A stretch of 51,360 bases of DNA, taken from contig CAZNMD010000005.1 in assembly GCA_964574355.1 (NCBI GenBank), positions 1 to 51,360 of the forward strand, in the 5' to 3' direction. Under the pieces are notes generated by a model, which worked only from the letters and a program-made list of their open reading frames with translations, ran no database searches and had not been told where the DNA came from. Source of the DNA: an uncultured Candidatus Saccharibacteria bacterium. GTDB taxonomy: Bacteria > Patescibacteriota > Minisyncoccia > Phycocordibacterales > DSPV01. Position numbers and translations under genes: made by a program. Below, piece after piece: positions 25,869-44,709 of this stretch (position 1 is the first letter of the stretch; each line of letters starts with the position of its first letter).

Positions 25869-26044
25869 TTCCGTCCCAACTCGAAGACTCGTTTGTGCCT
25901 AAAGACTTGATCTTTACATGATCAGTACAGGTTTCCCATTTTCTCACCATCAGAATGGTTCAAAAATATGGGAGAACCTTTTCAAGTCCCTTCTCGCGAA
26001 CAAAGTAGTTTGTTCGCTTCCGTCCCAACTCGAAGACTCGTTTG
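25869..26044 (-). other. structured tRNA-Leu(CAA) tail element
   Basis: Inverted copy of the tRNA 3' end (25981-25995), inserted hairpin, core, and a 31-bp direct repeat (25869-25899 and 26018-26048). Confidence 0.75.
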
Positions 26045-26125
26045 TGCCGGAGAAGGGACTTGAACCCTTAAGCCTTGCGGCATGCGATTTTGAGTCGCAC
26101 GTGTATGCCATTCCACCACTCCGGC
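26045..26125 (-). tRNA. tRNA-Leu(CAA)
   Basis: GCCGGAG acceptor, TGCGA-CTCAAAA-TCGCA, long variable arm, GGTTCAAGTCC. Confidence 0.96.
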
Positions 26126-26208
26126 GTACTGACAAATCTACACCACTTAGCGTGTTTGCTCAACAGGTATTATTTGTAAATACCCCCATAGTCTGTTAGT
26201 ACTTAAGT

Positions 26209-27102
26209 GTGGACAAACAAAAACTAATCACTGTTATTGGTCCAACAGCAACCGGAAAAAGCGCTCTGGCGGTTTTACTTGCAAAAAAATATGGTGGCGA
26301 GATTATTGGAGCCGACTCAAGACAAGTATATAAAAACCTTGATATTGGCACTGGAAAAGTTACCAAAAAAGAAATGCGGGGTGTTCCACATTATCTCCTT
26401 GATGTAGCTGATCCTAAAAAACAATTTAGTGTTTCTGAATACGTTGAACTGGCAGAAAAAACAATCGTGGAAATTGTTGGCCACGGAAAGATACCTATCG
26501 TTTGTGGCGGAACAGGATTTTATATCGACACCCTGTTGAGTAACACCAAAATTCCTCATGTTCCACCAGATAAAGAACTACGAAAACGTCTCGAGGGAAG
26601 ATCTGCTTCTGAACTCTACACCATGCTCACCTTTCTTGATAAAGAACGATCAAAGACGATTGACGCTGAAAATTCACGACGCCTCATCAGGGCAATTGAA
26701 ATAGCAAAGCATTTTGGCGCTGTCCCTTCTCTTTCACCCGGTGAATCAAAATATAACGTACTCAAAATTGGCCTTACCCTACCAAAAGAAGAGCTTCGAA
26801 AAAAAATTCGAGATCGAATTTTTTCACGCCTAAAAGAAGGGATGATTGCCGAAGTTAAAAACCTTCATACACAAGGCCTTTCCTGGAAACGAATGGAAGC
26901 ACTTGGCCTTGAATATCGTTTCATTGCTCGCCATCTTCAAAAAAAACTAACCGAAACAGAACTTGTAGGAAAATTAGAAACCGAAATATGGCGTTACTCA
27001 AAAAGACAAATCACCTGGTTTAAACGCGATAAAAAAATTCAATGGTTCAATCCGAAGGAAACTTCAGCAATAGAACAAACGGTTGAGAATTTTTTGAAAT
27101 AG
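26209..27102 (+). CDS. miaA: tRNA dimethylallyltransferase
   Basis: GPTATGKS, DSRQVY, GTGK, GGTGFY and KRQITWF. Confidence 0.96.
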   Translation: MDKQKLITVIGPTATGKSALAVLLAKKYGGEIIGADSRQVYKNLDIGTGKVTKKEMRGVPHYLLDVADPKKQFSVSEYVELAEKTIVEIVGHGKIPIVCGGTGFYIDTLLSNTKIPHVPPDKELRKRLEGRSASELYTMLTFLDKERSKTIDAENSRRLIRAIEIAKHFGAVPSLSPGESKYNVLKIGLTLPKEELRKKIRDRIFSRLKEGMIAEVKNLHTQGLSWKRMEALGLEYRFIARHLQKKLTETELVGKLETEIWRYSKRQITWFKRDKKIQWFNPKETSAIEQTVENFLK

Positions 27103-27149
27103 AAAAACGCCCCGTATGTACAGGACGTTTTTGTAACAACCGATGAAAA

Positions 27150-27512
27150 TCAAAGATCCACGAACCGAAGAACTACTTCAACCGTTGAAGGGTTAATCGG
27201 AACACAGGCAATCTTGATTTTTGTCACTGGTGAATCTTTTGGCCACTGGCATTCCCCGACATAAGGGGGCTCATCTTTAGGCGACATACCTCCGAGCCGG
27301 TAGAGCTCTGCAAAAACTTGCATAACATCTTCTGCTCGAAAATCATTCAAGTCACCGTGTTTCTCACCATCAAGGAAAACCTTCCCAGAAGGCGCAATAC
27401 GGATCACCTCAACTGAATCATTCCTGGCACAGGTGATCAAACGATTCACTCGGCGAGGAATGGAATCACCAGAACCAACACCAGCTCCTTTTTTTGATGG
27501 TACTCTACTCAT
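27150..27512 (-). CDS. stand-alone PilB/GspE N2-domain-like protein (start uncertain)
   Basis: RVNRLI..A....V..IRIAP...LDG...L.RLGGM...P..G....IKIACVP....VVLRFVD follows the pattern of the secretion-ATPase N2 domain; no Walker A. Confidence 0.55.
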   Translation of the reverse strand: MSRVPSKKGAGVGSGDSIPRRVNRLITCARNDSVEVIRIAPSGKVFLDGEKHGDLNDFRAEDVMQVFAELYRLGGMSPKDEPPYVGECQWPKDSPVTKIKIACVPINPSTVEVVLRFVDL

Positions 27513-27578
27513 GGTGGTCATTTCTTTCATCTTCGAATTCCGAAAATATAATAACACACTATTTTAAAATAAACAATA

Positions 27579-28745
27579 CTATTCCTTAGTATCAGATTTT
27601 AATCTTTTTAAATACGTTTTATCTTTAATTCTATCTGGCAAATAGGTTTCCGTATCATATTTTTTATAATTTTTTCCATATCCTAAATCTTTCATGAGTT
27701 TTGTTGGTGCATTGCGAATTTTTAACGGAATAGCGAGGTTCCCAAATTCTAAAACATCCTTCTTCGCAGCCTGTAATGCGTCATAAGCACCTCTATCCTT
27801 CTTTGCCAGAGAAAGATAGGCAGCCCCGTGCGCAAGATTTATTGCAGCTTCTGGTAATCCGATAATTTCAACCGCACGAAATACTTCATTCGCCACAACA
27901 AGTGCGGTTGGTTGAGCCAATCCAATATCTTCCGACGCAAAAACAACCATTCTACGTGCAATAAATTTTGGATCTTCCCCTCCCTCAATCATCCGAGCCA
28001 AATAGTAGATAGCCGCATCAGCGTCTCCTGCCCGCATGCTTTTTATAAATGCCGAAATAGTGTCGTAATGTTCTTCGCCTTTTTTATCAAAACGGATAAA
28101 TGTATTTTGAAGAGTGTTTTTAAGAGTTTCGAGCGTCACCTTTCCATACAACTGAAGTGCACTCTCAAGAACAGTAATCAACATACGAGCATCACCGTTT
28201 GCCACTTGAAGCAACCAATCAACCGATTCTTTGGTTATTTTCACCTTTGTCCGTTTAATGATTTTTTTCAAATCATCATCAGTAAGTGATTTCAGAACAA
28301 ACACTCGACAACGAGAAAGAAGGGCTGAAATAATTTCAAAACTTGGATTTTCAGTCGTAGCACCGATCAATGTCAGCGCACCTGATTCTACGTATGGCAA
28401 AAGAAAATCTTGCTGTGCTTTATTAAATCGATGAATCTCATCCAAAAATAAAACTTTTGGCCGCTGATCAAAAACCGTATCTTTTTCTTCAACGATTGCC
28501 CGAATATCATCTTTACCAGCCGAAACCGCGGACAACTCATACAAACGAGCATCAAGTGCCTTCGCATAAATTTTCGCGAGTGTTGTTTTACCAACTCCTG
28601 GCGGGCCCCATAAAATAAAAGAAAATCGATGCCTCTCTTTGACCGCAACAGAAAAAGGCTTCCCTGGACCAACAAGATGGTCCTGACCAACAAATTCTTT
28701 CAACCCCTTTGGTCGTATACGTGAAGCCAGCGGCTCAGATTCCAT
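27579..28745 (-). CDS. rarA: replication-associated recombination protein A
   Basis: [48 protein letters not shown] and ASEDIG. Confidence 0.96.
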
Positions 28746-28812
28746 CCCTCAAGCCTACCACTACTCTACCCTTGACTGGAACAATCAATACGCTTTTATT
28801 AAAAAGAAAAAA

Positions 28813-30459
28813 TTACTTCTTAATATGATCAAGTGCATACTTGAGTGTTCCGTGCACCTTTTTCCCTGGATTTAATACATTAAGAGGATCAAAAATCTTC
28901 TTTGTTTCCTCAAAAAGTTTAATTATTTTTTCGCTATACATCATCGGCAAATAGGGCGTTCTTATCATGCCGTCATTATGTTCGCCGGTAATTGAACCTT
29001 TATAAGACATAACCAGCTCATATACCTGTTTTGAAAGATCAGAAATAATGGTTTTTGTTTCCGGTTTTGATAAATCCATAAGCGGGATAATGTGAAAATT
29101 GCCATCACCAATATGTCCCGCAATGGTATACACCAACTTATACTGCTTAAGAATTTTTTCTAGTTTTGGAAAAAACTCTGGAAGAACATCCGGACGAACA
29201 ACAAAATCATCAATAAATGGTGCGGTTTTTAATCCTCTCACGTGTTTACGAAGCAACGCAAAACTTTCGTGTCTAATCGTCCAATATTTTTTTGCACCGT
29301 TTTCACTCGCAATACTAGTAACGGCCGGCAAGCCTTTTAGAGCTTTTTTTGCACGATGCGCCGCCTCCAACGCTTCTTTCTCAGTCTCGCCAGAAAATTC
29401 AGCAAGTAATACAAGCTTCGGCAAACCCCCTTTTATTGTCATCAAAAGTTCAGGAAAAAACGAAAAAGCGAGTGGGATCATTTTACTTCCTAAATGTTTT
29501 GCAATTTCAGGTAAAAATCGGAACGCGAGTTTCATTGTCTGATCATCGTACGATTCAAACGCTTGAGGACGTTCAACAAGAACACGACGAACAATTTCAG
29601 GTAATTTATCAAATGAGCGCATAAAAATCACTAGGAGTGCTTTTCGAGGTTTTGGAACAACTAAATCAAGAGTTGCCTCAGTCACAATCCCAAGTGTCCC
29701 CTGTGAACCCACGACGATCTTCGACAAATCAAAAGTCTTCTTTTCTTTGTCATAAATATTCCACAAATAATAACCTGCAGAATTTTTACTAACATTTGGT
29801 CGAGACTCCTCAATATCTTTTGCATTTTCGGTAACAAGAGCATGCATCTTTCTGTAAATTTCACCTTCTAACGTTTGCTCTTGTTTCTTTTTTTCTAGTG
29901 CATCCTCACCTAACGCTTCAAAAACAACTTCTGAGCCGTCAGAAAGAACTGTTTTCAGGGAACGGACGTATCGTTCTGTTTTCCCATAATTTAAATTAAG
30001 TTCTCCACCAGAATTATTAGCAATCATGCCACCTAGTGCGCAAAGATCTTTTGAGGCGGTAAAACATGGAAGCAACAAACCCTTTTTAGCAGCCTCTGGT
30101 TCAAAATCGCGATAATACACACCCGGTTCAACGATCGCATGTCCACCTTTTCCTTCCTTGGTAATACTTTTTATCTGATTAAGATTTTTTGTAAACGAAA
30201 GCACGATTGACTCACCAAGTGGCCCACCACTCATATCAGTGCCTGCCGCTCGGGCCGTCACCGAAACATCTTCACCTTTCGTTTTTGCTTCATGAGCAAG
30301 ACGAACAACCGCTTGAACATCAGCTGTATCCTTTGGATGGACAACTACCTTTGGTCTTACTGAAAAAATACTGGCATCCGTACTTGCTGTATCAAGTGCA
30401 GCAACACTATCCTCAACTTCACCGCGACACCTTCCAGCAAGATCTTCTTTTAGAGACAT
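28813..30459 (-). CDS. FAD-linked oxidase (GlcD/D-lactate dehydrogenase family)
   Basis: RAAGTDMSGG, GGMIANNSGG, GSQGTLG, GHIGDGNFH, TGEHNDG and FDP.NVLNPGK. Confidence 0.92.
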   Translation of the reverse strand: MSLKEDLAGRCRGEVEDSVAALDTASTDASIFSVRPKVVVHPKDTADVQAVVRLAHEAKTKGEDVSVTARAAGTDMSGGPLGESIVLSFTKNLNQIKSITKEGKGGHAIVEPGVYYRDFEPEAAKKGLLLPCFTASKDLCALGGMIANNSGGELNLNYGKTERYVRSLKTVLSDGSEVVFEALGEDALEKKKQEQTLEGEIYRKMHALVTENAKDIEESRPNVSKNSAGYYLWNIYDKEKKTFDLSKIVVGSQGTLGIVTEATLDLVVPKPRKALLVIFMRSFDKLPEIVRRVLVERPQAFESYDDQTMKLAFRFLPEIAKHLGSKMIPLAFSFFPELLMTIKGGLPKLVLLAEFSGETEKEALEAAHRAKKALKGLPAVTSIASENGAKKYWTIRHESFALLRKHVRGLKTAPFIDDFVVRPDVLPEFFPKLEKILKQYKLVYTIAGHIGDGNFHIIPLMDLSKPETKTIISDLSKQVYELVMSYKGSITGEHNDGMIRTPYLPMMYSEKIIKLFEETKKIFDPLNVLNPGKKVHGTLKYALDHIKK

Positions 30460-30580
30460 GAAGAAATTGTATCACGCCTTGTAAAGAGCGCTCGACTTCT
30501 AACCTGTAGACAAAATAAAAAAACCCGCAACAATTGCTTGCGCGGGTCTTAAACAAAAAAACTCACCCCTACTGCTTCAC

Positions 30581-31327
30581 TTACGCCTTTGCAGAATCCT
30601 TCCTTAATTTCTCCTTTGGAAGAACCTCGGTCAAAGTTTTCCAAATTTGAGGATCTGTTTCAAGAGCCAGAGCCTTGGACCCATCTTTGCACAGCGGACA
30701 TTCTGCTGATGACCACCGACCAATTCTTTGATGAATCATCGACAGAATCTCTCTTCCGTTATGAATTTTTTTGCTCCCAAAATTCACCGGAACCAAAACA
30801 TACTGCTCAACCACTGCCCCAGCGGTCGATACGGCCTGTGCCAAATCATCAACATCTTTAACGTTTTCATCCAGAACCGGCAAACACAGAATAACGTGCT
30901 CACCTGATTCAATCTTCAAACCTTCACACTCAAACACAGAACCATCAGTCGAACAAACATTCGACCAGCAGCACGGTGCATTTTTCGATTGAGCAATAAT
31001 CCTTGCAAGAGCAAACGTGAGCGCCTGAAATTCAGTAAAACCAACCACGCGATTGATATTCTTGGTATTGGCATTCCGACCTTTCGTAAGCAATCCAAAA
31101 AGACCCGCAGCAATTTGATTTAGAACATACGCGTCAGAAAACAAACGCGTCGAATCAAAATAGCCATCTGCGTGTAGGGCATCTTCCAGAATATGTGGTC
31201 GCCGAAAATCACCATCAGAAAACCACAAACCTTTTGTTCTCGCCCCTAATCCAAGTAACTCCTCTCTCGCAGATTTGAAAACATCCCTTTGACCAAAGAG
31301 ATTAAATCGATCTATTGGCATATACAA
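30581..31327 (-). CDS. PyrE-like phosphoribosyltransferase homolog with degenerate PRPP loop
   Basis: HADGYF, a PRT-like topology and C-terminal W...ECPLC..G as in one OPRT subfamily; VEDV.TTG is replaced by CLPVLD. Confidence 0.6.
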   Translation of the reverse strand: MYMPIDRFNLFGQRDVFKSAREELLGLGARTKGLWFSDGDFRRPHILEDALHADGYFDSTRLFSDAYVLNQIAAGLFGLLTKGRNANTKNINRVVGFTEFQALTFALARIIAQSKNAPCCWSNVCSTDGSVFECEGLKIESGEHVILCLPVLDENVKDVDDLAQAVSTAGAVVEQYVLVPVNFGSKKIHNGREILSMIHQRIGRWSSAECPLCKDGSKALALETDPQIWKTLTEVLPKEKLRKDSAKA

Positions 31328-31574
31328 TCCTTTGTTTTTTCAAACACCAAAAACATTTTGGTTCTAATAAGGAACATTAAGGGACAATCAATGGGAATGC
31401 AAGCACCAACTTTTGCGGATACGATGGAGATCGGCCACAGCTCTCGTCGCGCCGTCGCAACACTATATTCCCCGAAATCTACCAAGAACACTTTTTATCA
31501 CCGTCACTCTCCGTGTTTAAAGCGATGGAGGAATCTGTCAGCAATCGAACGCTGCGCGTTCTCTTGAATATTTG

Positions 31575-31645
31575 CGGGCGATGGAGGAATCGAACCTCCG
31601 ACAGCGGTTTTGGAGACCGCAGTTATGCCACTTAACTAATCGCCC
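31575..31645 (-). tRNA. tRNA-Trp(CCA)
   Basis: GGGCGAT/ATCGCCC acceptor, GCGGT-CTCCAAA-ACCGC, GGTTCGATTCC. Confidence 0.95.
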
Positions 31646-31706
31646 GTACGGCTAATTTAACACACGAAAGACACTGAGCCAATGCAAGAAAGAAATGTTT
31701 TGACCC

Positions 31707-31745
31707 ATAAACAAAAATCTCGCACTGGGCGAGATTTTTGTTTAT
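31707..31745 (-). terminator. terminator after rpmG
   Basis: ATAAACAAAAATCTCGC-ACTGG-GCGAGATTTTTGTTTAT 17-bp inverted repeat. Confidence 0.75.
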
Positions 31746-31900
31746 TTCTTTGCTTCCTTGTGCTTTGTCTTCTTTTTGCACCATTTGCAAAACTTCAAAA
31801 GCTCGATTTTTCGTTCGACTTTCTTCTTGTTTTTGCTTGACCAGTAGTTAACGCGCTTACAGGTCTGGCAGGCGAGTTTTATCAATCTATCTTGTGACAT
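31742..31900 (-). CDS. rpmG: 50S ribosomal protein L33 (52 aa, not in the ORF track)
   Basis: Manual translation MSQDRLIKLACQTCKRVNYWSSKNKKKVERKIELLKFCKWCKKKTKHKEAKK. Confidence 0.95.
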   Translation of the reverse strand: MSQDRLIKLACQTCKRVNYWSSKNKKKVERKIELLKFCKWCKKKTKHKEAKK

Positions 31901-31954
31901 GGCTGTTTTTTGAAATGTTTGGAAACTATACCCGAAAGCGGTTAAATACGCAAC

Positions 31955-33097
31955 CTAGCGATATAGACGCTTAATAAGGGGATTAATACGGGTAATTAAC
32001 TCGTAGTGAGACGCATCAATAAGGCCAGAAAGCCAGGGTGCGCTAATTTCACCCTCGCTTGTATGTCCAAGCAGCGTTACGGTATCACCAACAGAAACAT
32101 CACCAACATCAGTCAGATCAACAGTAAGCATATCCATAGAAACACGTCCCAAAACACGAGCCTTCACACCATTCACCAACACATGCCCGATAGACGAAAA
32201 AGCTCGAGAATATCCATGCCAATATCCAATCGGCAAAACACCAATAACAGAATCACGCCACAAAACCTCAGTGCAATCATATCCAACCTTGTCTCCCTTT
32301 TTCAGATTCTTTACCTCAGAGATAATTGTCTTCCAAGAAAGAACTGGCGTTAAATCATATTTTGATTCCATCGCCGATTTTGTTTCTGTTGATGGCCATA
32401 AACCGTATAAACCAATACCAATACGAACCATATCGTAATGCCCTTCAGGAAAAAGCAGTGTTCCCGCTGTTGCACTGGCATGAGTTACCACAGACATCCC
32501 TTCCTCCAAAAAAGCTTTTCTCCACACATTAAACTCTGCGATCTGTTTTTTTGTGTACTCTGGAAACGCAGGATTTTTTGCTGAGGCAAAGTGCGTATAT
32601 AAACCAACAACTTTTATTTTTTCAGCATATTTTTTAAGAAGATGCATCACCTCATCTTTTTCATCAAGCAAAAAACCTTGCCGATGCATTCCGGTATCAA
32701 CCTTCACATGAACTGAGATTGGTTTATCTTTTACTATCGCAACAATGGAACTTACATGATCGTGGTGTGAAAGCGTAATAGAAATATCATGTTCAATGGC
32801 AACCAAAAGCATTTCTGGAAGCGTATACCCCAAAACAATTATAGGTGTTTTTATCCCTTCTCGTCGCAAGGCAAGAGCTTCAATAATCGAATCAACTGCA
32901 ATAGTATCAACTCCTAGCATTTCAACCTCTTTTGCAAAATCAACAAGGCTATGTCCATACGCATTCGACTTCAAAACAGCACATAATTTTGTCTCTTTTT
33001 TTATAAGAGAACGAAAAATGCCTACATTGTGACTAATTGCTTGGCGATTGATTTCTATCCAGGTACGCAAACCCTCCGGATTTTCCTTCTTTGACAT
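31955..33097 (-). CDS. alr: alanine racemase
   Basis: AVLKSNAYGH (PLP lysine), HVKVDTGMHRQG, RIGIGLYG and GRVSMD. Confidence 0.96.
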   Translation of the reverse strand: MSKKENPEGLRTWIEINRQAISHNVGIFRSLIKKETKLCAVLKSNAYGHSLVDFAKEVEMLGVDTIAVDSIIEALALRREGIKTPIIVLGYTLPEMLLVAIEHDISITLSHHDHVSSIVAIVKDKPISVHVKVDTGMHRQGFLLDEKDEVMHLLKKYAEKIKVVGLYTHFASAKNPAFPEYTKKQIAEFNVWRKAFLEEGMSVVTHASATAGTLLFPEGHYDMVRIGIGLYGLWPSTETKSAMESKYDLTPVLSWKTIISEVKNLKKGDKVGYDCTEVLWRDSVIGVLPIGYWHGYSRAFSSIGHVLVNGVKARVLGRVSMDMLTVDLTDVGDVSVGDTVTLLGHTSEGEISAPWLSGLIDASHYELITRINPLIKRLYR

Positions 33098-33148
33098 ATC
33101 ATGAATACTATCGGATTTTAGCAACCCAAGCAATCCGCATAAAATCTT

Positions 33149-33823: not shown

Positions 33824-33915
33824 ATTTTATTTTTTATATTGTTCCACTAAGTATAGCAATGAGTGCTCCATAAAAAATACTCCTCGGACCTAACCGAGGA
33901 GCAAGGGAAAGTCTG

Positions 33916-34215
33916 TCACGGATCTAAATGTTGCTTTCCTTCACGAGTCCAAGGATCAACGTACCCAACACCGTATACATGCACAAAACGACTATTGGGA
34001 GACAAGAGGTCTTCAAACCGTTGTGCCAAACGAGCAGCCTCTTCTTTCTCTACCTGCTCAACAAAAGCTTCACACTCCGTACAAAGATCGCCTCCTTGAA
34101 AATAAGGATACCCACAAGCCTGACACATGCAATGTCGCTGCTCAGCAAGAAGGTGTGGATTCATCCTTCTGTTGGGCAACGCAATGACACAGACTCTCTC
34201 TTTTTCTATTGCCAT
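33916..34215 (-). CDS. hypothetical Cys-rich (putative zinc-binding) protein
   Basis: AAAGGA SD before ATG 34215; CMCQACG...CTEC; hairpin CTCCTCGG/CCGAGGAG downstream. Confidence 0.6.
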   Translation of the reverse strand: MAIEKERVCVIALPNRRMNPHLLAEQRHCMCQACGYPYFQGGDLCTECEAFVEQVEKEEAARLAQRFEDLLSPNSRFVHVYGVGYVDPWTREGKQHLDP

Positions 34216-34265
34216 AAATGTTCCTTTGTAGAAGTCTGAATAAAACATACCATGAAAAAGAACAC

Positions 34266-34432
34266 TCGGGCCAGAGTGCTCACTGCTCGCCTTCGCAGAC
34301 TCGGCTCCGCTCACGAAACCCACGGTTTCGTGGACATCCTCCACGGAATACTCCCGTTTTCCGACCCTTTCCCAAGTTCGAGTCTGGCCAGACGCAAAAC
34401 AAACCTGGATAAACCAGGTCTGTTTTTTTATG
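34266..34432 (-). other. structured tRNA-Tyr tail element
   Basis: Inverted copy of the tRNA 3' end (34375-34396, 21/22 match), hairpin core and sense fragment (34266-34275). Confidence 0.7.
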
Positions 34433-34515
34433 TGCGTCGGGCCAGACTCGAACTGGCGATGCCCAATGGGCCGCGGATTTACAGTCCGCTGCAATAGCCG
34501 CTATGCGACCGACGC
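34433..34515 (-). tRNA. tRNA-Tyr(GTA)
   Basis: GCGTCGG/CCGACGC acceptor, GCGGA-CTGTAAA-TCCGC, long variable arm, AGTTCGAGTCT. Confidence 0.93.
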
Positions 34516-37298: not shown

Positions 37299-37436
37299 GC
37301 CTATATGATATCAAGTAAAAACGATACGTAAAAATCCGATTTAGATACGGTAAAACAAGACTTAAACAGAATTACTAATGGAAACAATTATACAATAATA
37401 ATATATTGAGTCAATAATTTCCTGGATGTACGAATT

Positions 37437-38252
37437 TTAGAAACGATAAATTTCTTTGGCCTGATCTACCGGCAGAAACGCACCTCGGCTCGCGGTCACC
37501 CCGCCCTCCATAATACCAACAAGTTGTCCGTTCAAATTAAGAAGAGGAGATCCTGTCATCATTGGATTTGAATACAAATTAGTACCAATACCACGATGAA
37601 CAGAATCTTTTAATTCGTCGAGTGATGAAACAATACCTATGGATACCTCATTTTTTTGAGCACCACCTAACCCAATAACGGTTTGCCCCAACCGAAGTGC
37701 ATCAGACATACCAATGGAAGAAAAAGGAAAGGTAGCTGGCCCTGTCTCACCTGGAATAATCGAAAAGAGAGAAAAAGGTGAATTAGTAACTGTTGTCGTT
37801 GCAAATACTAGCTCATGAGAAGAACCATCGAAAAGCACCGCGCGAAAAAGAGTTGTTGTTATGTTGTTTGTAATATGAGGAGCAAGCACTGTTCCTTCTC
37901 TGGTAACAATCACTCCAAGTGAAGCAAACTCTTCTTGCGCCCCGGCCTCCGTTCCTTTTTTGAAAATACGAACAACAGCGGGACCATTTTTCTCAACAGA
38001 AGCAGGTACAAGCTCATCTTCTTTTACCACAACCGTCTCACGCTCAATAACAGTTTTTCCTGGCGTTGTTTCAACAACCTTCTCCGGAACAACTCGCTCA
38101 ACGGTACGCTCAACAACCCTATTTACTGTTTGTGTAATTACTGGAGGTGCATTTTCAAGCAACGACGCAGTCATAATGCCGGTCGCAATAGAAGTCACAA
38201 ACGACACAAGGAGAGCTAAAAGAATTATTTGCTGTTTAGAAAGACTTTCCAT
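37437..38252 (-). CDS. membrane-anchored trypsin-like (HtrA-type) domain protein, probably inactive
   Basis: N-terminal TM, LRLGQTVI, VSIGIVS and GSPLLNLNGQLVGI; the GNSGG nucleophile motif is not conserved. Confidence 0.7.
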   Translation of the reverse strand: MESLSKQQIILLALLVSFVTSIATGIMTASLLENAPPVITQTVNRVVERTVERVVPEKVVETTPGKTVIERETVVVKEDELVPASVEKNGPAVVRIFKKGTEAGAQEEFASLGVIVTREGTVLAPHITNNITTTLFRAVLFDGSSHELVFATTTVTNSPFSLFSIIPGETGPATFPFSSIGMSDALRLGQTVIGLGGAQKNEVSIGIVSSLDELKDSVHRGIGTNLYSNPMMTGSPLLNLNGQLVGIMEGGVTASRGAFLPVDQAKEIYRF

Positions 38253-38321
38253 ATGAATATAGTACCATGCAAGACTTTAATCCAAGAAAGTATTGGTTCA
38301 TAACAACACCCCACAGAAAAA

Positions 38322-39509
38322 TTATTTTCTCAATTCTTTAAAACTTTCTCGAGCATACGCAACCGCTTGTACATATGCGTCTTTAATTTTTTTAACATCA
38401 CTCATTTTTACATAAGGACCTATAGTAAAACGAACTGCCGATTGAGCTCGCCACACATCATGAGGGGCAATAGCCAAAACCACAGGAGAAATCTGTTCAC
38501 CTGCCGCACACGCAGTCCCCGTTGATGCCGCAACACCAAGTACATCTAATTTCGTCACTACAACATCAGCATTAATACCACGAAGAGAAACATTCACATT
38601 ATTAGGAACACGATGTTTTAGTGTTCCATTTACTATCACTTCTGGAAGTGATTCTTGAATCATCTTTAGAAGAGCATTTCTTACCAATAAAACAGACCTC
38701 TCTGTTCCTTTTCTTTTTTTTGCTATTACAGATAACGCTCGTGCAAAACCAGCGATACCAGGAACATTTTGTGTACCAGACCGAAGACCGGCCTCTTGTC
38801 CACCACCAGTAATAATTGGCCTCAATACAACACCCCTTACTACAGCAAGCGCCCCGACCCCACGAGGTCCACCAACTTTAAGACTGTCGATAGCAATCGT
38901 ATCGACACGTAACGTATCAAGATGAACAGAAATCCACGGTGCTGATTGACAAGCATCAACATGAACATGAGGATTTCCTAAACTTTTCACAACAGAAACA
39001 ATTTCAGAAATGGGCTGGATCGTACCAATCTCACTGTTAACATGATGAAGAACAACCAACGATGTTTTATTTGTAACAATTGCCTTAAAAAAAATGGGAT
39101 CAAGAATACCATCCTCTCGAGGAACAACCCACTGCACAAAAACCCCTTTCTTTTGATAGAAAAGGAGAGTTTCTCGAATCGACGGGTGTTCAATTGTACT
39201 TGAAACAACAAAAACATTTTCATACCGACCAAGCCGTAACGCAGCCTCTTCGATAACACCTCCTATGGCCACAAGGTTCGATTCCGTTCCAGAAGCCGTA
39301 AAAATTACCTCATCTGCTTTTGTATTAAAAAACTGAGCAACCATTTTACGAGCTTCTTCAAGTTCTCTTCGTGCAATCCTCCCCTCTTCATGAATCGAGC
39401 TTGGATTACCAACATATTTAGACACTCTTAAAAACTCAGCACGAGCCTCTTTCAAAAGAGGTGCCCCTGCTGCATAATCGGCATACACTCTTACTCCCTT
39501 TTTTTGCAT
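38322..39509 (-). CDS. iscS: cysteine desulfurase (IscS/NifS family)
   Basis: GNPSSIH, FTASGTES, EHPS, HVDACQ, K.GGP.GVG, GGGQE.GLRSGT and STGTAC. Confidence 0.9.
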   Translation of the reverse strand: MQKKGVRVYADYAAGAPLLKEARAEFLRVSKYVGNPSSIHEEGRIARRELEEARKMVAQFFNTKADEVIFTASGTESNLVAIGGVIEEAALRLGRYENVFVVSSTIEHPSIRETLLFYQKKGVFVQWVVPREDGILDPIFFKAIVTNKTSLVVLHHVNSEIGTIQPISEIVSVVKSLGNPHVHVDACQSAPWISVHLDTLRVDTIAIDSLKVGGPRGVGALAVVRGVVLRPIITGGGQEAGLRSGTQNVPGIAGFARALSVIAKKRKGTERSVLLVRNALLKMIQESLPEVIVNGTLKHRVPNNVNVSLRGINADVVVTKLDVLGVAASTGTACAAGEQISPVVLAIAPHDVWRAQSAVRFTIGPYVKMSDVKKIKDAYVQAVAYARESFKELRK

Positions 39510-39643
39510 GACCACCATAGTACAACTAAGCCTCTTACTCGACTAGGGCTTAGCACTTATGAGAAAACTTTTTATTTTTAGACCAAACCTTCACCAAACC
39601 AAGTGTTTGCAACATTATAAATAATATTGTACGATAACGAATC

Positions 39644-40129
39644 ATGCAGCTCGACTCAACTATTCTTATTTTTGTAGGAGCATCTGTTGCCATCCTCATT
39701 ATTATTGGCTGGCTGATACACCTTGAACGTCGAGTTTCAAAACTTGTTATTGGCAAGAATGGAAAATCATTAGAGGACTCAATACTCTTTGCAAAAAATC
39801 AACTTCTTGAACAAGCAGCTTGGAAAAAAGAGATAGAACAGTACCTCGCGCACGTTGAACATCGCTTAACTCATACACTCCGTGAATCAAAAACTATTCG
39901 ATTCAACGCTTTCAAAGGAACAGGCGAAGGTGGAAATCAGAGCTTTGCAACAGCCTTCCTTTCAGAAAAAGGAAACGGCGTGGTCATTTCAAGTCTCTTT
40001 ACTCGCGACCGAGTGAGTGTATATGCAAAACCAATCGTAAAACTTGAATCAACTTATGATTTAACCGAAGAGGAACGCCAAGCTATAAATGAAACAGTTC
40101 AATCGGTTAAGGAAACAAAAGATAAATGA
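39644..40129 (+). CDS. DUF4446 family protein
   Basis: N-terminal TM, RFNAF...GGNQSF..A.L...GNGVVISSL..R....YAKP and LTEEE..A. Confidence 0.8.
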   Translation: MQLDSTILIFVGASVAILIIIGWLIHLERRVSKLVIGKNGKSLEDSILFAKNQLLEQAAWKKEIEQYLAHVEHRLTHTLRESKTIRFNAFKGTGEGGNQSFATAFLSEKGNGVVISSLFTRDRVSVYAKPIVKLESTYDLTEEERQAINETVQSVKETKDK

Positions 40130-41664
40130 AAAAAGAACCCACAAAAAAAGCAGTAAACACGGCGGTCCCTCGACCGCCTGTTGTTGCTATTATGGGCCAC
40201 ATTGACCACGGCAAATCAACCCTTCTCGATTTTATTCGAAAAACACATATCACCGACAAAGAAGCAGGTAGTATTACTCAGCACCTTGGAGCCTACGAAA
40301 CGACCTTTGAAGGAGATACCGGAGCAAAACGCCGTATAACCTTCCTTGATACTCCAGGTCATGCAGCTTTTGGGGGTATCCGCGAACGCAGTGCCAAAGC
40401 GGCAGATATTGCCATCCTTGTTGTCTCAGGAGAAGAAGGTGTAAAACCACAAACTATCGAAGCCTATAAACGGATTATTGAAAGCAACCTCACGTTTATT
40501 GTCGCGGTCACAAAATCAGATAGTCCTAAATTTAACCTAGAAAGAACTCGACAATCACTCGCGGAACATGAAATTTTTACTGAAGGTTACGGCGGAGACG
40601 TTTCCACCATCGCTGTATCTGGAAAAACGGGCGACGGCATAAAAGAACTTCTCGATCTTATTGCTCTAACAGCTGATATGGCTGAAATCACGTACGATCC
40701 ACACCTCCCGGCTCATGGAGTCATTGTTGAGGCACACAGAGACGAAAAAAGAGGAAACGCGGCAACTATTGTTATTAAAAACGGCACACTTACAAAAGGT
40801 TCTTGGCTTTCTTCAGGAAACACAACAACACCCGTTCGTTATATAGAAAACGATCTTGGTCAAACAGTAGACACTGCCACAGCATCAACGCCCGTTGGTG
40901 TTATTGGCTGGAACGCCCTTCCCCCTATAGGCGAAGATGTCTTTATGCACCCAGATAGAAAATCAGCCGAAGCTGCTCTTGTCAAAAAACCTTCTGTTGA
41001 TACAACAAAAAAAACAGACGTCCCTCTGCTTGATACAAACGATACAAATAGCACGCCAATCAAAGTCCACACACTAAACGTTATCGTAAAAGCTGACACT
41101 GCAAGTTCAGCCGAAGCTGTAGTTGGAGAACTTAAAAAACTATCGGTACCAGAAGTTACTGTACACATCATTGAATCGGGAGTCGGAGATATAACTGAAA
41201 GTGATCTGAAACTCGCAACCGCACGAACAGATTGTGTTCTCGTTGCCTTTAACGCAGCTATCTCAAAAAAACTTACAGAATACGCACTACGTGAAAATAT
41301 CCCCGTTCTTGCTTTTGACATTATTTACACCTTGGTTGAAACAATCCAAACAATGGTGAAAGAAAGAACTCCAAAAGTTATCCTCGAAGAAATGACTGCT
41401 CGCGTAAAAATTATTCGAGTTTTCAGTGTTGATAAAGATAAACAAATTGTTGGCGGACGCGTCGAAGAAGGTACCCTTACTTCCGGTTCTTCAGTAAAAC
41501 TATTTCGACGTGATGCTCCAATTGGAGTTGGAAAAATTAGAAATATCGAACACAACAAACAAAAAGTTACTGAAGTTAAAAAGGGGTCTGAATTTGGCAT
41601 GATGATTGAGTCAAAAATAATTATTGCTCCAGGTGACAGTTTGCAATCATTCACACAAAGCTAG
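40126..41664 (+). CDS. infB: translation initiation factor IF-2 (short form)
   Basis: RPPVVAIMGHIDHGKSTLLD, ITQHLGAY and FLDTPGH. Confidence 0.96.
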   Translation: MKKEPTKKAVNTAVPRPPVVAIMGHIDHGKSTLLDFIRKTHITDKEAGSITQHLGAYETTFEGDTGAKRRITFLDTPGHAAFGGIRERSAKAADIAILVVSGEEGVKPQTIEAYKRIIESNLTFIVAVTKSDSPKFNLERTRQSLAEHEIFTEGYGGDVSTIAVSGKTGDGIKELLDLIALTADMAEITYDPHLPAHGVIVEAHRDEKRGNAATIVIKNGTLTKGSWLSSGNTTTPVRYIENDLGQTVDTATASTPVGVIGWNALPPIGEDVFMHPDRKSAEAALVKKPSVDTTKKTDVPLLDTNDTNSTPIKVHTLNVIVKADTASSAEAVVGELKKLSVPEVTVHIIESGVGDITESDLKLATARTDCVLVAFNAAISKKLTEYALRENIPVLAFDIIYTLVETIQTMVKERTPKVILEEMTARVKIIRVFSVDKDKQIVGGRVEEGTLTSGSSVKLFRRDAPIGVGKIRNIEHNKQKVTEVKKGSEFGMMIESKIIIAPGDSLQSFTQS

Positions 41665-41667
41665 TAT

Positions 41668-42000
41668 ATGGCCGACGAAATTAAAGATAATCGAGCGAAA
41701 TCCATATTAACTGATGCAGCTGCATCGTTTATCGCACTTGAAACAAATGGTTTTTCGCTGATCACTGTGACAAACGTCAATATTACCAACCACGGAAAAA
41801 TGGCTGACATCCTCGTTACCGTCTTACCAGACAAGGAAGCCGAGTCGGCAATTAGCTTTTTGAAGAGAAAACGTGGCATCTTTCGTGATTATCTCAAAGA
41901 TAAAACAAAGCTTGCACGTATCCCTTTTATTGATTTCAACCTTGACCTTGGTGAAAAAAATCGCCAGCGCATAGATGAATTGACCATACCAAAAACATAG
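41668..42000 (+). CDS. rbfA: ribosome-binding factor A
   Basis: Follows infB; LITVT.V...A.I.V and RIPFIDF.LD.G...RIDEL. Confidence 0.85.
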   Translation: MADEIKDNRAKSILTDAAASFIALETNGFSLITVTNVNITNHGKMADILVTVLPDKEAESAISFLKRKRGIFRDYLKDKTKLARIPFIDFNLDLGEKNRQRIDELTIPKT

Positions 42001-42052
42001 CCGTCTTTGGCTTTTCTGGTAGGATAATGATTACCCTCCCCAAAAGGACGGT

Positions 42053-42079
42053 AATGCGGTGGTGGCGAAGTTGGTTAAC
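42053..42079 (+). repeat. 27-bp duplicate of the tRNA-Cys 5' end
   Basis: AATGCGGTGGTGGCGAAGTTGGTTAAC is identical at 42053-42079 and 42175-42201. Confidence 0.9.
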
Positions 42080-42177
42080 CCCAGCACCAACGAATATCTG
42101 GTACGGGGCACGGCGTGACTCCGTCGCTAGTGCTAAGATTGAGCTCGTGGTACCAAAAAATAGTTAGTTACAGAAAT

Positions 42178-42251
42178 GCGGTGGTGGCGAAGTTGGTTAA
42201 CGCGACGGTCTGCAAAACCGTTATACGCGGGTTCGATCCCCGCCCACCGCT
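42178..42251 (+). tRNA. tRNA-Cys(GCA)
   Basis: GCGGTGG/CCACCGC acceptor, ACGGT-CTGCAAA-ACCGT, GGTTCGATCCC, U73. Confidence 0.95.
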
Positions 42252-42329
42252 CAAGAAAATCGTTCATAAGGCGATTTTCGAAAAGGTTAGAGGAGAACCG
42301 TGCCTACGCACTGTTAAAACCTGACCTAT

Positions 42330-42413
42330 GCCCGGGTGACGTAATTGGTAGCCGTACGAGACTTAAAATCTCGAGATCGTAAGATCGTGTGGGTTCGATT
42401 CCCACCCCGGGCA
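42330..42413 (+). tRNA. tRNA-Leu(TAA)
   Basis: GCCCGGG acceptor, CGAGA-CTTAAAA-TCTCG, long variable arm, GGTTCGATTCC. Confidence 0.95.
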
Positions 42414-42441
42414 CAAAAACAATTTACACTTTTTACATATC

Positions 42442-43773
42442 CTAAAATCCGTAGGTATACAAACTTTGAATCAAGAAAAATAAAACAATTAATGTAGCGA
42501 CTGCTCGTGTTGCTAACACGCCAGAAGCTTCAGAAAAAATCGACAGTTTTTCAAGACCATAAACAAGTATAAGCACCGCAAAAAAGTATGCGGGAACATA
42601 ATGGTATAAAAACATTGGCCTCGTCCACGCCATACACACGATTGATAAATAGGAAACCATATACCCCAACAAAAGCATTGCTTCTGTTTGAGAAGGAGAA
42701 GAAGTGTGTACATTTTTGCGAGCGAATAATCGAAACACAGTTACAAAAATAAGTAACAGTATAGCGACAAATGTAAACGTATACACGGGAAAACTTCCAG
42801 AAAACCGAATACTTTGCCGATCTCCTTTTTTCTGCCACGCATTCATTACATCAAGCCCTAAAGGCCATTTCTCTGGATAACCGTAAGCTAAAACATGATC
42901 CATAATCTTTGGATTTTTTTGTATGGCAACCGAGGTCTTTGTATGAGCATAGACATGCTCCAAAACAGTACCCGCTGTTACAAAAGAAGGAAAAGAAATA
43001 GCATCAGCTAAATCAGCATATAAACTTCTACTTGGAGTAACCAATCCACCCTCAAAATGAGAAAGGTATACACCCCATACAAAAAGATGAGTTGCAATTG
43101 AGACAACAAAGACAACACCTACCAAAAGAACTATTTTCCACCACTGACGAACATAGATCACAAAAACGAGAGCCGCCAGAACTCCAAAAATGCCTCCTGT
43201 CCATTTAACCGAAAATGCTAACCCCACAAACAGACCGGAAAGAAAAGCGAAAAACCAATTTCGCCACCCTTCCCATCGAACCGCACATAAAGAAAAAATC
43301 ATCGAAAGAAGGCAAAAAACCCACAAGATCGAATCGGGTAAAATAAGTCGCGAATAGACAATAAGAAGTGAATCAAGCATTGCGGCACCTCCCGCAATCA
43401 GTGCATATTTCCTTCCTATACCAAAAAGCCGTGCGAGAATAAAAAGTAACCCCGGAATCAACATACCAAAAACAACAGATACTTTTCGTGCGGGCACATA
43501 CGGAAAATCTCCAAAGGGTTTACCAATCACACTTTGCTTATGAAAAAGAGGCACAGCGTCACCCTCTCCATAAGGAGATGTGAAAATCATTCGCGCTAAA
43601 GGTGGATGAATTTCAAAATATCGAATCTGGTGAACATCGTTCGACAAAAAAGTTGCATACGCCCCCTCATCAAATACAGAAACTGCTGGATACGAAATAA
43701 AAGGTATACGAACAAAAAATGACGCAAGGACTAACCCTGCAACAATATACCAATCAATCCGTGAGAACTTCAT
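42442..43773 (-). CDS. PMT-family (GT-C) protein O-mannosyltransferase-like protein
   Basis: VFDE..Y, HPPLAR, SRLIL.D, SVKWTG and RPMFLYHY.PA motifs; polytopic membrane protein. Confidence 0.85.
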   Translation of the reverse strand: MKFSRIDWYIVAGLVLASFFVRIPFISYPAVSVFDEGAYATFLSNDVHQIRYFEIHPPLARMIFTSPYGEGDAVPLFHKQSVIGKPFGDFPYVPARKVSVVFGMLIPGLLFILARLFGIGRKYALIAGGAAMLDSLLIVYSRLILPDSILWVFCLLSMIFSLCAVRWEGWRNWFFAFLSGLFVGLAFSVKWTGGIFGVLAALVFVIYVRQWWKIVLLVGVVFVVSIATHLFVWGVYLSHFEGGLVTPSRSLYADLADAISFPSFVTAGTVLEHVYAHTKTSVAIQKNPKIMDHVLAYGYPEKWPLGLDVMNAWQKKGDRQSIRFSGSFPVYTFTFVAILLLIFVTVFRLFARKNVHTSSPSQTEAMLLLGYMVSYLSIVCMAWTRPMFLYHYVPAYFFAVLILVYGLEKLSIFSEASGVLATRAVATLIVLFFLIQSLYTYGF

Positions 43774-43976
43774 AGAATCCTTTGAGTCTATCTAAAGTAG
43801 AAAAAAAATCCATAGGCAGAGAACAAAAAACATAGTACATTTGCCGAAAGTACTTAATTGTTATACATTTTCTCTACACTCTAACGATTCGTTAGTTTGA
43901 AACCCGCGCATTCATATGCTGTTTTAGTAAATATGCAGTAAAATTAACAGCTATTACATGGGTTAACGTTTACTAT

Positions 43977-44049
43977 CCGCCCGTAGCTCAGTCGGTAGAG
44001 CAGTCGCCTCTTAAGCGAATGGTCGCAGGTTCGATTCCTGCCGGGCGGA
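43977..44049 (+). tRNA. tRNA-Lys(CTT)
   Basis: CCGCCCG/CGGGCGG acceptor, TAGCTCAGTCGGTAGAGC D-arm, CTCTTAA anticodon loop, GGTTCGATTCC. Confidence 0.93.
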
Positions 44050-44347
44050 CAAAAACAAACGAAGTGAGTTTTTTCTCGCCCGGAGTGAGCAAACTGCTTT
44101 GCTCACGTCAGGAATCGAAGAGGTCGAACATATCGTAGTGAGCTTCCGAGCGAAACGAGATGTGAGGCCTGTACCGTCCCCGTAGGGGAAGATTATCCTG
44201 CTGTACAGAAATCGAAGCCGTTCTCCGTTATTTGTGAGGTATTCTGATGCCAAACAAATCGGAAACGGATACTGCTCCTGTAAGGAGGGATACTCCTGCC
44301 GGTTCATGCAGAAATCGAAGAGGTCAAACATATCGTAGTGAGCTTCC
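44050..44347 (+). other. structured tRNA-Lys tail element (about 2.4 tandem modules)
   Basis: Antisense copy of the tRNA 3' end split by a hairpin; CAGRAATCGAAG units at 44109, 44206 and 44309. Confidence 0.8.
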
Positions 44348-44369
44348 AACGGCTTCACGGCCTCCGTCT

Positions 44370-44628
44370 TTCAAGTCCTCTCCCGCGCATAAAACAATAG
44401 TCGCCCAATGCTTTCGCATTGGGCTCCTTTGTTTTTGGTGCGCGGGAGAGGAATCTTTCCCGCGACTCAAAATTTGCCGTCGCAAATTTTGGTCTGGGCA
44501 CCGCCTCGCTCCCATTCGAAACGAATGGATCCTGCTCCGGCGTTCAAGTCCTCACGAAAGCTCCCCCGGAGCTTTCTTCTCGCACTACCCAAGCAAAAAT
44601 CGCCTTTCGGCGATTTTGTGCTTTTGGG
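44370..44628 (-). other. structured tRNA-Leu(TAG) tail element
   Basis: Two inverted copies (44370-44389, 44542-44585) and one direct copy (44436-44452) of the tRNA 3' end, separated by hairpins. Confidence 0.8.
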
Positions 44629-44709
44629 TGCGCGGGAGAGGACTTGAACCTCCATGCCTTGCGGCACTTGCTCCTAAGGCAAGCGTGTCTGCCATTTCAC
44701 CACCCGCGC
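44629..44709 (-). tRNA. tRNA-Leu(TAG)
   Basis: GCGCGGG acceptor, CTTGC-CTTAGGA-GCAAG, long variable arm, GGTTCAAGTCC. Confidence 0.95.

Follow-up and report, generated by a model that had tools for sequence, protein, structure and literature searches.

Structured tails that carry copies of the host tRNA 3′ end follow tRNA and tmRNA genes in an order of Paceibacteria-like bacteria

Several described systems place short structured sequences beside transfer RNA (tRNA) genes or spread them through genomes. Genomic islands and prophages integrate at tRNA and transfer-messenger RNA (tmRNA) genes, leaving the tRNA gene intact, and their attachment (att) sites are classically recognized by a tRNA 3′ end repeated in direct orientation, which starts in the T-loop or T-stem and reaches the end of the tRNA. 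The attC sites of integrons and the folded, single-stranded attP of the CTX phage, whose recombinase is the host's own Xer enzyme, are imperfect palindromes with arms that pair in one strand around a variable or structured center. Here, we analyzed the window, a stretch of 51,360 nucleotides (nt) corresponding to contig CAZNMD010000005.1 of the assembly GCA_964574355.1, in which four tRNA genes are followed by what we call tails: an antisense copy of the host tRNA's own 3′ end, a structured core, and a sense copy of the same 3′ end. They represent an apparently undescribed family of small, structured, non-autonomous repeats, or tRNA-end insertion elements. Most likely, the arms were copied from the target as DNA, the cores have been exchanged or spread within the genome, and whole tails have been gained or lost between close relatives.

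The tails are reminiscent of attC and the CTX attP in their strand-specific structure, their arrays, an occasional cargo-like gene, and homogenization within genomes, but their arms copy the neighboring tRNA end, apparently in place of conserved R and L boxes, their target is the 3′ end of a tRNA or tmRNA gene and not attI or dif, and there is no integron integrase here. With tRNA- and tmRNA-integrating islands and prophages, they share the targets, the 3′ direct repeat, and an intact tRNA gene, although the tails are 100 times smaller, have no integrase, and add an inverted copy of the target together with conserved hairpin modules. They also recall repetitive extragenic palindromes (REP/REPIN), bacterial interspersed mosaic elements, and miniature inverted-repeat transposable elements (MITEs), which are short, non-coding, hairpin forming, multicopy, and modular or mosaic, lie after genes near terminators, are patchily distributed among relatives, and have copies that cluster by genome. 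In contrast to REP/REPIN and MITEs, the tails have site-specific end arms, and their copies stand strictly at tRNA or tmRNA 3′ ends; compared with MITEs, the inverted arms vary from copy to copy, matching the host tRNA, and there is no target duplication of fixed length. A structured RNA directly 3′ of a tRNA, with a helix that imitates the acceptor/T-stem stack (predicted in the tails), is likewise found in mascRNA, plant t-elements, and herpesvirus tRNA-microRNA units; however, the predicted tail helix is a perfect duplex of the host tRNA's 3′ strand, and a terminator-like hairpin often separates tRNA and tail. Finally, fold-back duplications, triplications, and quasi-palindrome correction produce the same sense-antisense-sense order with turning points at hairpins, whereas the tails have conserved structured modules at these points and recur on many tRNAs and in many genomes.

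The genome under study (G000) comprises 778 kilobases (kb) in 26 contigs and is 99.8% complete; the window is its whole contig C5. The closest relatives of the window's proteins belong to candidate-phyla bacteria of the Paceibacteria/Parcubacteria type (labeled Taylorbacteria, Nomurabacteria, Paceibacterota, and similar). Tails were sought with an antisense scan tolerant of split copies, complemented by inspection by eye, and scored at three or fewer mismatches in the 12-nt antisense T-arm. By this measure, 18 of the 45 tRNA genes and the tmRNA gene are tailed, giving 19 tails of ca. 130 to 330 nt each with no open reading frame (ORF) inside, while the 27 other tRNAs showed 4 to 7 mismatches. 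Eight tRNAs lie in the window (ARAGORN and Rfam), and those for Thr, Trp, Cys, and Leu-TAA are untailed. The four tails recorded in a first-pass annotation made from the letters alone, at Leu-CAA, Tyr, Lys, and Leu-TAG, are where it placed them, the phenomenon being far wider than it noted. Its statement that the flanks match their own host tRNA also held: the last 20 nt of the tRNA found an ungapped antisense match within 450 nt downstream of 17/20 (Leu-CAA), 18/20 (Tyr), 15/20 (Lys), and 18/20 (Leu-TAG), against 9 to 13/20 in upstream controls.

Reading the DNA also bore out the order of parts given there, with the antisense copy ending at T54 of the T-loop. The parsed order is tRNA, usually an A-tract/hairpin/T-tract, antisense acceptor arm, a hairpin of 22 to 26 nt, antisense T-stem/T-loop, core, and sense copy. 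The parts in the window, with coordinates read by hand from sequence rulers, are as follows (R1 and R2 are covariance models that we built for the C-type and A-type cores, respectively).

26044-26125, minus strand: tRNA-Leu(CAA), host of tail 1 (ARAGORN; Rfam tRNA)
26027-26043, minus strand: tail 1 trailer, 17 nt, no clear terminator (read from the sequence; no terminator-like site in the terminator scan)
26018-26026, minus strand: tail 1 antisense acceptor arm (A), 6/9 against the reverse complement of the tRNA end (sequence comparison)
25996-26017, minus strand: tail 1 small hairpin (hp1), which separates the acceptor and T-stem parts of the antisense copy; gap of 25 nt
25981-25995, minus strand: tail 1 antisense T-arm (A′), 12/12 against the reverse complement of T54-65
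25910-25980, minus strand: tail 1 C-type core, a long and a short hairpin (R1 match at 25905-25984, 96.7 bits)
25895-25909, minus strand: tail 1 degenerate sense copy (S) of the tRNA 3′ end (sequence)
25869-25894, minus strand: tail 1 partial second unit, trailer and antisense acceptor arm (exact 26-nt direct repeat of 26043-26018)
34432-34515, minus strand: tRNA-Tyr, host of tail 2 (ARAGORN; Rfam)
34396-34431, minus strand: tail 2 trailer, A-tract/hairpin/T-tract (hairpin terminator-like on the plus strand, scan)
34376-34395, minus strand: tail 2 unsplit antisense copy of the tRNA 3′ end, 18/20 (sequence comparison)
34277-34375, minus strand: tail 2 Tyr-type core (second copy on contig C16, with no adjoining tRNA)
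34263-34276, minus strand: tail 2 degenerate sense copy, within a terminator-like hairpin and T-run (sequence; terminator scan)
43977-44050, plus strand: tRNA-Lys(CTT), host of tail 3 (ARAGORN; Rfam)
44051-44073, plus strand: tail 3 trailer (sequence)
44074-44083, plus strand: tail 3 antisense acceptor arm (sequence comparison)
44084-44106, plus strand: tail 3 small hairpin hp1 (sequence)
44107-44119, plus strand: tail 3 antisense T-arm, 11/12 (sequence comparison)
44120-44208, plus strand: tail 3 D-type core, a distant relative of the C type (weak R1 match at 44116-44194, 34.6 bits)
44209-44216, plus strand: tail 3 second short antisense T-loop piece, before the C-type core (sequence)
44213-44292, plus strand: tail 3 C-type core (R1 match, 92.1 bits)
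44292-44302, plus strand: tail 3 truncated sense copy (the identical Lys-TTT tail, on another contig, has it in full)
44320-44347, plus strand: tail 3 repeated beginning of the D-type core (96% over 28 nt)
44627-44709, minus strand: tRNA-Leu(TAG), host of tail 4 (ARAGORN; Rfam)
44591-44626, minus strand: tail 4 trailer, hairpin between A and T runs (terminator-like on the plus strand only, scan)
44576-44590, minus strand: tail 4 degenerate antisense acceptor arm (sequence)
44556-44575, minus strand: tail 4 small hairpin hp1 (sequence)
44543-44555, minus strand: tail 4 antisense T-arm, 11/12 (sequence comparison)
44454-44542, minus strand: tail 4 A-type core, two hairpins, the second with a conserved 4-nt loop (R2 match at 44443-44547, 113.1 bits)
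44437-44453, minus strand: tail 4 first sense copy, 13/13 compared nt matching the tRNA 3′ end; a 17-nt stretch by eye
44389-44436, minus strand: tail 4 second unit, conserved trailer hairpin (terminator-like on both strands; the same module follows tRNA-Leu(GAG) on contig C17)
44370-44388, minus strand: tail 4 second unit, unsplit antisense copy of the tRNA 3′ end (sequence comparison)
44348-44369, minus strand: tail 4 second unit, B-type core cut off after its start, directly adjoining the Lys tail (sequence)

The tails of Leu(CAA) and Tyr extend down to 25869 and 34263, respectively, whereas those of Lys(CTT), reaching ca. 44347, and Leu(TAG), reaching down to 44348, are convergent and meet at 44347/44348. 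The sense copy that the first-pass annotation placed after each core is present but degenerate at Leu-CAA and Tyr and truncated at Lys-CTT. Across the parsed tails, the antisense copy is the reverse complement of host tRNA positions 54 to 76, its acceptor arm also including the discriminator and the next base or bases, and in the tmRNA tail on contig C2 it contains the complement of the encoded CCA. The small hairpin splits this copy at the 65/66 boundary, that is, between acceptor and T-stem, in 41 of 46 parsed tails, with a gap of 20 to 35 nt (mostly 22 to 26); it is absent from the Glu-CTC, Tyr, and His tails and from the second Leu-TAG unit. A terminator-like hairpin lies between tRNA and antisense arm in about 12 of the 19 tails (by eye). 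Core types number at least four in the study genome (A, B, C together with the related D, and the Tyr type), with more in related genomes. Several tails are compound: Glu-CTC has a B core before a C core, both Lys genes have D before C, and Leu-TAG and Ala-GGC have two units each. The tails of Lys-CTT (window 44051-44347) and Lys-TTT (C15:~8950-9199), on different contigs, have by eye the same sequence over ca. 240 nt, with D cores 100% identical over 89 nt and C cores matching equally well, indicating a recent duplication or conversion that included the shared tRNA 3′ half.

Two occurrences stand out. The tail of tRNA-Ala(CGC) (C13:200-780, locus L037) consists of a hairpin, arm, small hairpin, and antisense T-arm but has no core; its T-arm copy matches tRNA-Ala(GGC), and it resembles a copy of the second Ala-GGC unit, which suggests spread between tRNAs sharing an acceptor end, before any re-tailoring. 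An orphan tail of the Tyr type (C16:11479-11600, locus L041) has hairpin, antisense arm, and core without an adjoining tRNA, and its arm is the complement of a tRNA 3′ end found on no tRNA of this genome.

How closely the arms follow their host was evaluated by comparing cognate and non-cognate pairs. At the six variable positions of the C-type antisense T-arm, there were no mismatches to the own tRNA in 27/35 cases, compared to 21 of 1,154 non-cognate pairs; for the A type, at least 11 of 13 positions matched the own tRNA in 23/25 cases, compared to 42 of 598. The flanks do, then, track the host, a point on which the first-pass annotation had staked its proposal. For the 46 parsed tails, we also compared the 14 positions common to tRNA, antisense arm, and sense copy wherever the sense copy was recognizable (434 positions). 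All three agreed at 357 of them, only the antisense arm deviated at 44, and only the sense copy at 30, while both arms agreed against the tRNA at 2 and all three differed at 1. Inspected by eye and not counted, the antisense-arm deviations showed no apparent enrichment for changes that keep a wobble pair. This pattern of single-arm deviations fits DNA-level copying with later decay, or else ongoing conversion by the tRNA gene, and does not fit selection for an RNA helix between antisense and sense arms. Moreover, since the antisense arm runs on into the complement of the trailer, it mirrors the gene and not the CCA-ended mature tRNA.

In the cores, on the other hand, base pairing is conserved. 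For the C type, compensatory changes affected 16 of 25 pairs in 16 sequences and 24 of 25 pairs in 110 distinct copies aligned by the model, with 97.4% of cells paired versus 37 to 58% when partners were slid (0 of 500 shuffles reached the observed values); for the A type, the figures were 14 of 25 pairs in 6 sequences and 22 of 25 in 30 distinct copies, with 93.5% of cells paired versus 36 to 47%. The 110- and 30-copy alignments were fitted to the models, which favors pairing. The compensatory differences that had been pointed out between Lys and Leu-CAA, in the small hairpin and in the long C-type hairpin, are upheld in these alignments. Because G-U exceeded A-C in the C type (36 versus 8 among 2,042 cells, one pair supplying 16 of the G-U), it is on the tRNA-sense strand that the core structure is read, whether in RNA or in the DNA strand itself. 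Judging from these alignments, the secondary structure of the core is under selection on that strand.

No described RNA family accounts for the core, self-cleaving ribozymes and riboswitches included, within the scope of the Rfam 15 covariance-model scans: tRNAs alone passed the gathering scores over the whole window (the level at which the Tyr tail was compared), and regions 25700-26200 and 43900-44800 gave chance-level matches only at an expectation (E) value of up to 10. A 19-nt core word had no match in a viral contig collection. Nor did we find a description of such elements in the full-text literature, the coverage of which leaves supplements and subscription journals outside. The possibility raised beforehand that the motif belongs to an already described family thus found nothing in its favor.

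The distribution of the cores was examined with R1 and R2 in 151 genomes of the same order (identical for both models) and in 150 other genomes of the phylum, the latter including only one genome of the same order and five of the same class. R1 matched in 77/151 order genomes (up to 29 matches per genome) and R2 in 61/151 (up to 17), the union being 91/151. In the phylum sample, R1 matched in 0/150 genomes and R2 in 3/150. One of these three belongs to the same order, and the other two come from outside the class; in each of them, the best match lies directly after a tRNA (Leu or Val), with tRNA end and trailer repeated in two and a degenerate sense copy in the third. The tails are therefore found mainly in one order of Paceibacteria-like candidate-phyla bacteria and are rare elsewhere among the sampled genomes of the phylum. 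Throughout, the same architecture recurs on more than 20 tRNA species and on tmRNA.

Within genomes, cores almost never occur away from tRNA or tmRNA genes, which was the independence from tRNAs that the first-pass annotation had suggested looking for. Among the 113 non-redundant R1 matches in the retrieved loci, a same-strand tRNA or tmRNA lies upstream at 120 nt or less in 68, at 121 to 500 nt in 28 (compound tails), and farther away in 4, with none called for 13. For nine of these 13, the edge of the locus or contig is less than 450 nt away. Three of the remaining four do follow a host gene that ARAGORN missed (a tmRNA in two cases and a tRNA bearing a group I intron in one), leaving a single true orphan, in genome G038. 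In three of the four distant cases, ordinary genes stand between tRNA and tail, and the arms still match that tRNA. For the A type, 25/31 matches have a called upstream tRNA, and by eye, one of the remaining six follows an intron-bearing tRNA and another a tmRNA-like end.

Some of these loci deserve a brief description. In L084/L010 (G059), L097 (G232), and L099 (G226), ca. 1.2 to 1.4 kb with ordinary-looking, cargo-like ORFs separate tRNA and tail; by eye, one ORF is short-chain dehydrogenase-like and one is pterin dehydratase-like. The host tRNA apparently contains a group I intron in L105 (G250; Rfam Intron_gpI, 74.7 bits) and, by eye only, in L246 (G017); ARAGORN called neither of the two tRNAs.

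Comparison of relatives, another of the checks proposed at the outset, revealed both filled and empty orthologous sites. The congener G001 (100% complete, 45 tRNAs) has no tail at the 32 tRNAs examined except for a remnant at tRNA-His, and its 677 kb retrieved (maybe ca. 20 kb are missing) contained 0 matches to R1 or R2, compared to 10 and 6, respectively, in the study genome. At tRNA-Leu(CAA), a tail fills the site in G000, G003, and G008, and the site of G001, G005, and G006 is empty. G000 and G003 resemble each other in trailer and antisense acceptor arm, G008 resembles them in the arm only, and each of the three has a different core. Similarly, tRNA-Arg(GCG) has a tail in G295 and none in its congener G031, and the G295 flank after the sense copy resembles the G031 flank after the tRNA. 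Because it is placed where the tRNA end lies in empty-site genomes, we take the sense copy to be the displaced original tRNA end. The empty G031 site has no hairpin like the first one of the G295 tail, so the terminator-like hairpin came with the element there. Whole tRNA-gene replacement was considered as well and is not indicated, tRNA identity between G000 and G001 being the same for tailed and untailed tRNAs.

Tandem arrays reach ca. four units, and tails are also nested in one another. At tRNA-Cys of G262, three units have the same trailer, arm, and small hairpin, with a different core in the third. The direct repeats vary from ca. 11 nt to ca. 60 nt with the trailer counted, extending into the element-borne trailer at several loci, and copies of 1.3 to 1.4 units were also seen. 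The nearest neighbor of a core was in the same genome at a different tRNA in 38/68 copies (9% by chance), a figure lowered because many genomes contributed one copy only, and in another genome at the same tRNA type in 4/68. Overall, the frames look older and partly inherited, and the cores appear to have been exchanged or to have spread within genomes.

The tRNA-Leu(CAA) locus has peculiarities of its own. The gene (26044-26125) was compared with loci L013 to L017: it points toward the parB-like gene in the study genome and away from it in G001, and match positions suggest the G001-like orientation in G005, G003, G006, and G008, so the tRNA with its tail is inverted or relocated in the study genome. 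In G003 (L015), extra 5′ and 3′ fragments of tRNA-Leu(CAA) flank the intact gene, like ordinary leftovers of integrative elements, and the displaced 3′ half has a tail of its own.

We then considered which enzyme might mobilize the tails. Family profile searches of the study genome found no TnpB (PF07282), Y1 transposase (PF01797), IS110, Cas1 (PF01867), or serine recombinase. These results set the tails apart from REP/REPIN, with no transposase of the REP-associated (RAYT) Y1 type, and from casposons; a core followed by a 13- to 17-nt copy of the tRNA end superficially resembles the scaffold and guide of the IS200/IS605 TnpB guide RNA, but neither TnpA nor TnpB was found. The sole match among the recombinase families searched, a set that did not extend to general recombination, was an Xer-type protein, the genome's single tyrosine recombinase, which lies beside rpsO on a 2-kb contig in an Xer-like layout; there is no second integrase. 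In the comparison with G001, which overlooks divergent genes, 207 of 762 ORFs had no tblastn match in the 677 kb, and among those of at least 140 amino acids (aa), 92 of the 95 with a locus reference were scanned against Pfam, after dropping the known reverse transcriptase and two ORFs overlapping a tRNA or tail. Matches included an RNB ribonuclease, a PIF1-like helicase with HTH_40, PhoH-PIN, a DpnII system, GmrSD, and a Y-family polymerase with an S24 peptidase. There was no obvious mobilizing enzyme among these 92 ORFs, and no DDE transposase either, DDE families not having been scanned one by one.

The only reverse transcriptase of the genome (481 aa) belongs to class UG32 (padloc, E value of 1.3e-76; on the class, see PMC9226505) and lies directly downstream of the tmRNA tail. 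The region (C2:28177-32650, loci L021/L023/L046/L299) comprises smpB, tmRNA, the B-type tail, and the reverse transcriptase, followed on the opposite strand by an S24/LexA-like gene and a Y-family polymerase (IMS). The arrangement resembles a small island located at the end of the tmRNA gene, beyond which no second copy of the tmRNA 3′ end was found.

Taking these data together, we tentatively propose that the tails are a non-autonomous insertion cassette spread by recombination, a reading that we regard as a little short of probable and the mechanism of which is inferred. The first-pass annotation had offered a non-autonomous element that copies its target's 3′ end as one of two options, and it is this one that best fits the filled and empty sites, the congener lacking core matches, the arrays and nested tails, the genome-wise clustering of cores, and the arms that each track the tRNA and deviate independently. 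In a single strand, the inverted and direct arms would fold into a duplex replica of the 3′ end of the tRNA gene, with the core as the loop, much as in attC or the CTX attP, and host functions might integrate or excise the folded cassette at the tRNA end. A small circle integrating via its sense arm would be expected to give the observed order of tRNA, trailer, antisense arm, core, sense copy, and old flank, and tandem or partial units could reflect integration that was repeated or multimeric, or else unequal crossing-over. The terminator-like hairpin may shield the tRNA from being cotranscribed with an arm able to unfold it. As for re-tailoring of the arms to a new tRNA, our best guess would be template switching within the palindrome. 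A bolder version, in which the tails are a self-templating homing cassette that has no enzyme of its own, relies on host recombination or replication alone, and re-tailors its arms by copying the target, seems to us rather unlikely.

Several points weigh against the cassette. All of the empty sites could have arisen by deletion between the direct repeats, neither movement nor a circular or excised form was seen, and recombinase action on tRNA ends is conjectural. Retargeting needs changes in three host-specific segments interleaved with two conserved modules, which the cassette model alone does not explain. A small hairpin fixed at the acceptor/T-stem boundary and a strand-specific structure would also suit a functional tRNA-like RNA, the fitting of the larger core alignments to the models favors pairing, and genome-wise clustering of cores could come from gene conversion alone.

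A functional RNA tail, transcribed with or after the tRNA, is an alternative that we consider unlikely. It might act as a folding or maturation switch or as a mimic of an acceptor/T-stem minihelix, in which the small hairpin stands where the D and anticodon arms leave a tRNA, and RNase P, RNase Z, RNase III, or the CCA-adding enzyme processes the tail, releasing the core as a stable small or protein-binding RNA. The strong selection on core structure on the tRNA-sense strand and the fixed position of the small hairpin would be expected of such an RNA; the genome encodes an RNase P RNA, and the Tyr tail ends in a terminator-like hairpin. Minimum-energy folds of the co-transcript pair 20 to 45 nt of the tRNA with the tail in 10/10 tails and are predicted to be 5 to 22 kcal/mol below tRNA and tail folded apart, so that a full co-transcript could trap the tRNA, in line with the reasoning of the first-pass annotation; the tail alone pairs antisense arm and sense copy in 3/6 predicted folds and partly in two more. 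The pre-tRNA switch proposed there is physically possible but unsupported, given the arms without covariation (2 shared versus 74 single deviations and, by eye, no wobble bias), the terminator-like hairpin that precedes the antisense arm in most tails of the study genome, and a complete congener that manages without tails. Many sense copies are, in addition, degenerate or truncated, and several unrelated core types occupy the same frame.

Three other explanations were weighed. Replication or repair scars combined with gene conversion, which we judge distinctly unlikely, would arise by fold-back or template switching at the terminator palindrome and the T-arm with no dedicated mobility, the cores being templated insertions copied from other tails and the arms being kept tRNA-like by local conversion. 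This would agree with an antisense arm that continues a palindrome centered on the trailer hairpin and stops exactly at T-loop position 54, with the independent tracking of the tRNA by both arms, the trailer copy after the sense copy at several loci, the partial Ala-CGC tail with its Ala-GGC T-arm, and the lack of any enzyme found. Random switching, however, leaves the conserved hairpin at a fixed position and the structural selection on the core unexplained, as it does an architecture shared by so many tRNA species, tmRNA, and 91 genomes, and at the one empty orthologous site examined for it, the terminator-like hairpin was element borne. A retro-element, in which a reverse transcriptase working on a non-coding RNA template would switch to the 3′ end of the tRNA and the product would then recombine into the tRNA gene, has analogues in the hybrid complementary DNAs (cDNAs) of the Neurospora Mauriceville retroplasmid and in primer-binding sites. 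The antisense arm spans what a tRNA-primed or tRNA-templated cDNA would cover, and the UG32 gene directly after the tmRNA tail made the idea attractive at first. Nevertheless, the arm copies gene and trailer, not a CCA-ended mature tRNA, 18 of the 19 tails of the study genome do not adjoin a reverse transcriptase gene (a difference from retrons and defense reverse transcriptases as well), and a search of 60 related genomes revealed no close relative of the UG32 protein. In the 48 genomes for which both core models gave data, RVT_1 had no match in 18/32 tail-bearing genomes, including the richest two (29 and 21 core copies), and was present in 5/16 tail-free ones. This phyletic pattern largely refutes the retro-element, which we consider very improbable. 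Just as improbable, in our view, are decayed remnants of integrase-borne islands or prophages with their att repeats left at tRNA 3′ ends. The att-like direct repeat flanking the tails, the genes between tRNA and tail at three loci, and the att-scar-like fragments at tRNA-Leu(CAA) of G003 speak for them; yet the tails measure only 130 to 330 nt with a conserved and covarying internal structure, integration is not expected to give an antisense copy, the core word is missing from the viral contigs, and no integrase was found except the Xer-like gene.

If the tails are mobile, as the cassette reading holds, they would form a class of repeats whose arms are tailored to each site and which lacks an enzyme of its own, bearing on why tRNA ends are insertion hot spots and on rearrangement of small genomes, as in the inverted tRNA-Leu(CAA). 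Should the self-templating version be true, it would amount to a new class of prokaryotic mobile element with tRNA ends as programmable landing pads, and small RNAs with a tRNA-like minihelix as their cap might be a further product. As functional RNAs, the tails would represent several new classes of structured RNA connected with tRNA maturation. In any case, the genomes of candidate-phyla bacteria are smaller than 1 Mb, yet at least 60% of those sampled in the order carry tails on some tRNA genes, and the two covariance models provide markers for annotating such lineages. Sequence after tRNAs in these assemblies is repeat rich and prone to break contigs. Contigs of four DNA runs over 19.5 kb were broken at repeats and gave no usable filled/empty variant; one joint that goes back 149 at a 31-nt repeat may be an assembly-graph effect. 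Lastly, ARAGORN reported two unusual tRNAs in the study genome, one of undetermined type with a two-base anticodon (C11:11867-11941) and a tRNA-Ser(ACT) (C8:11358-11445).

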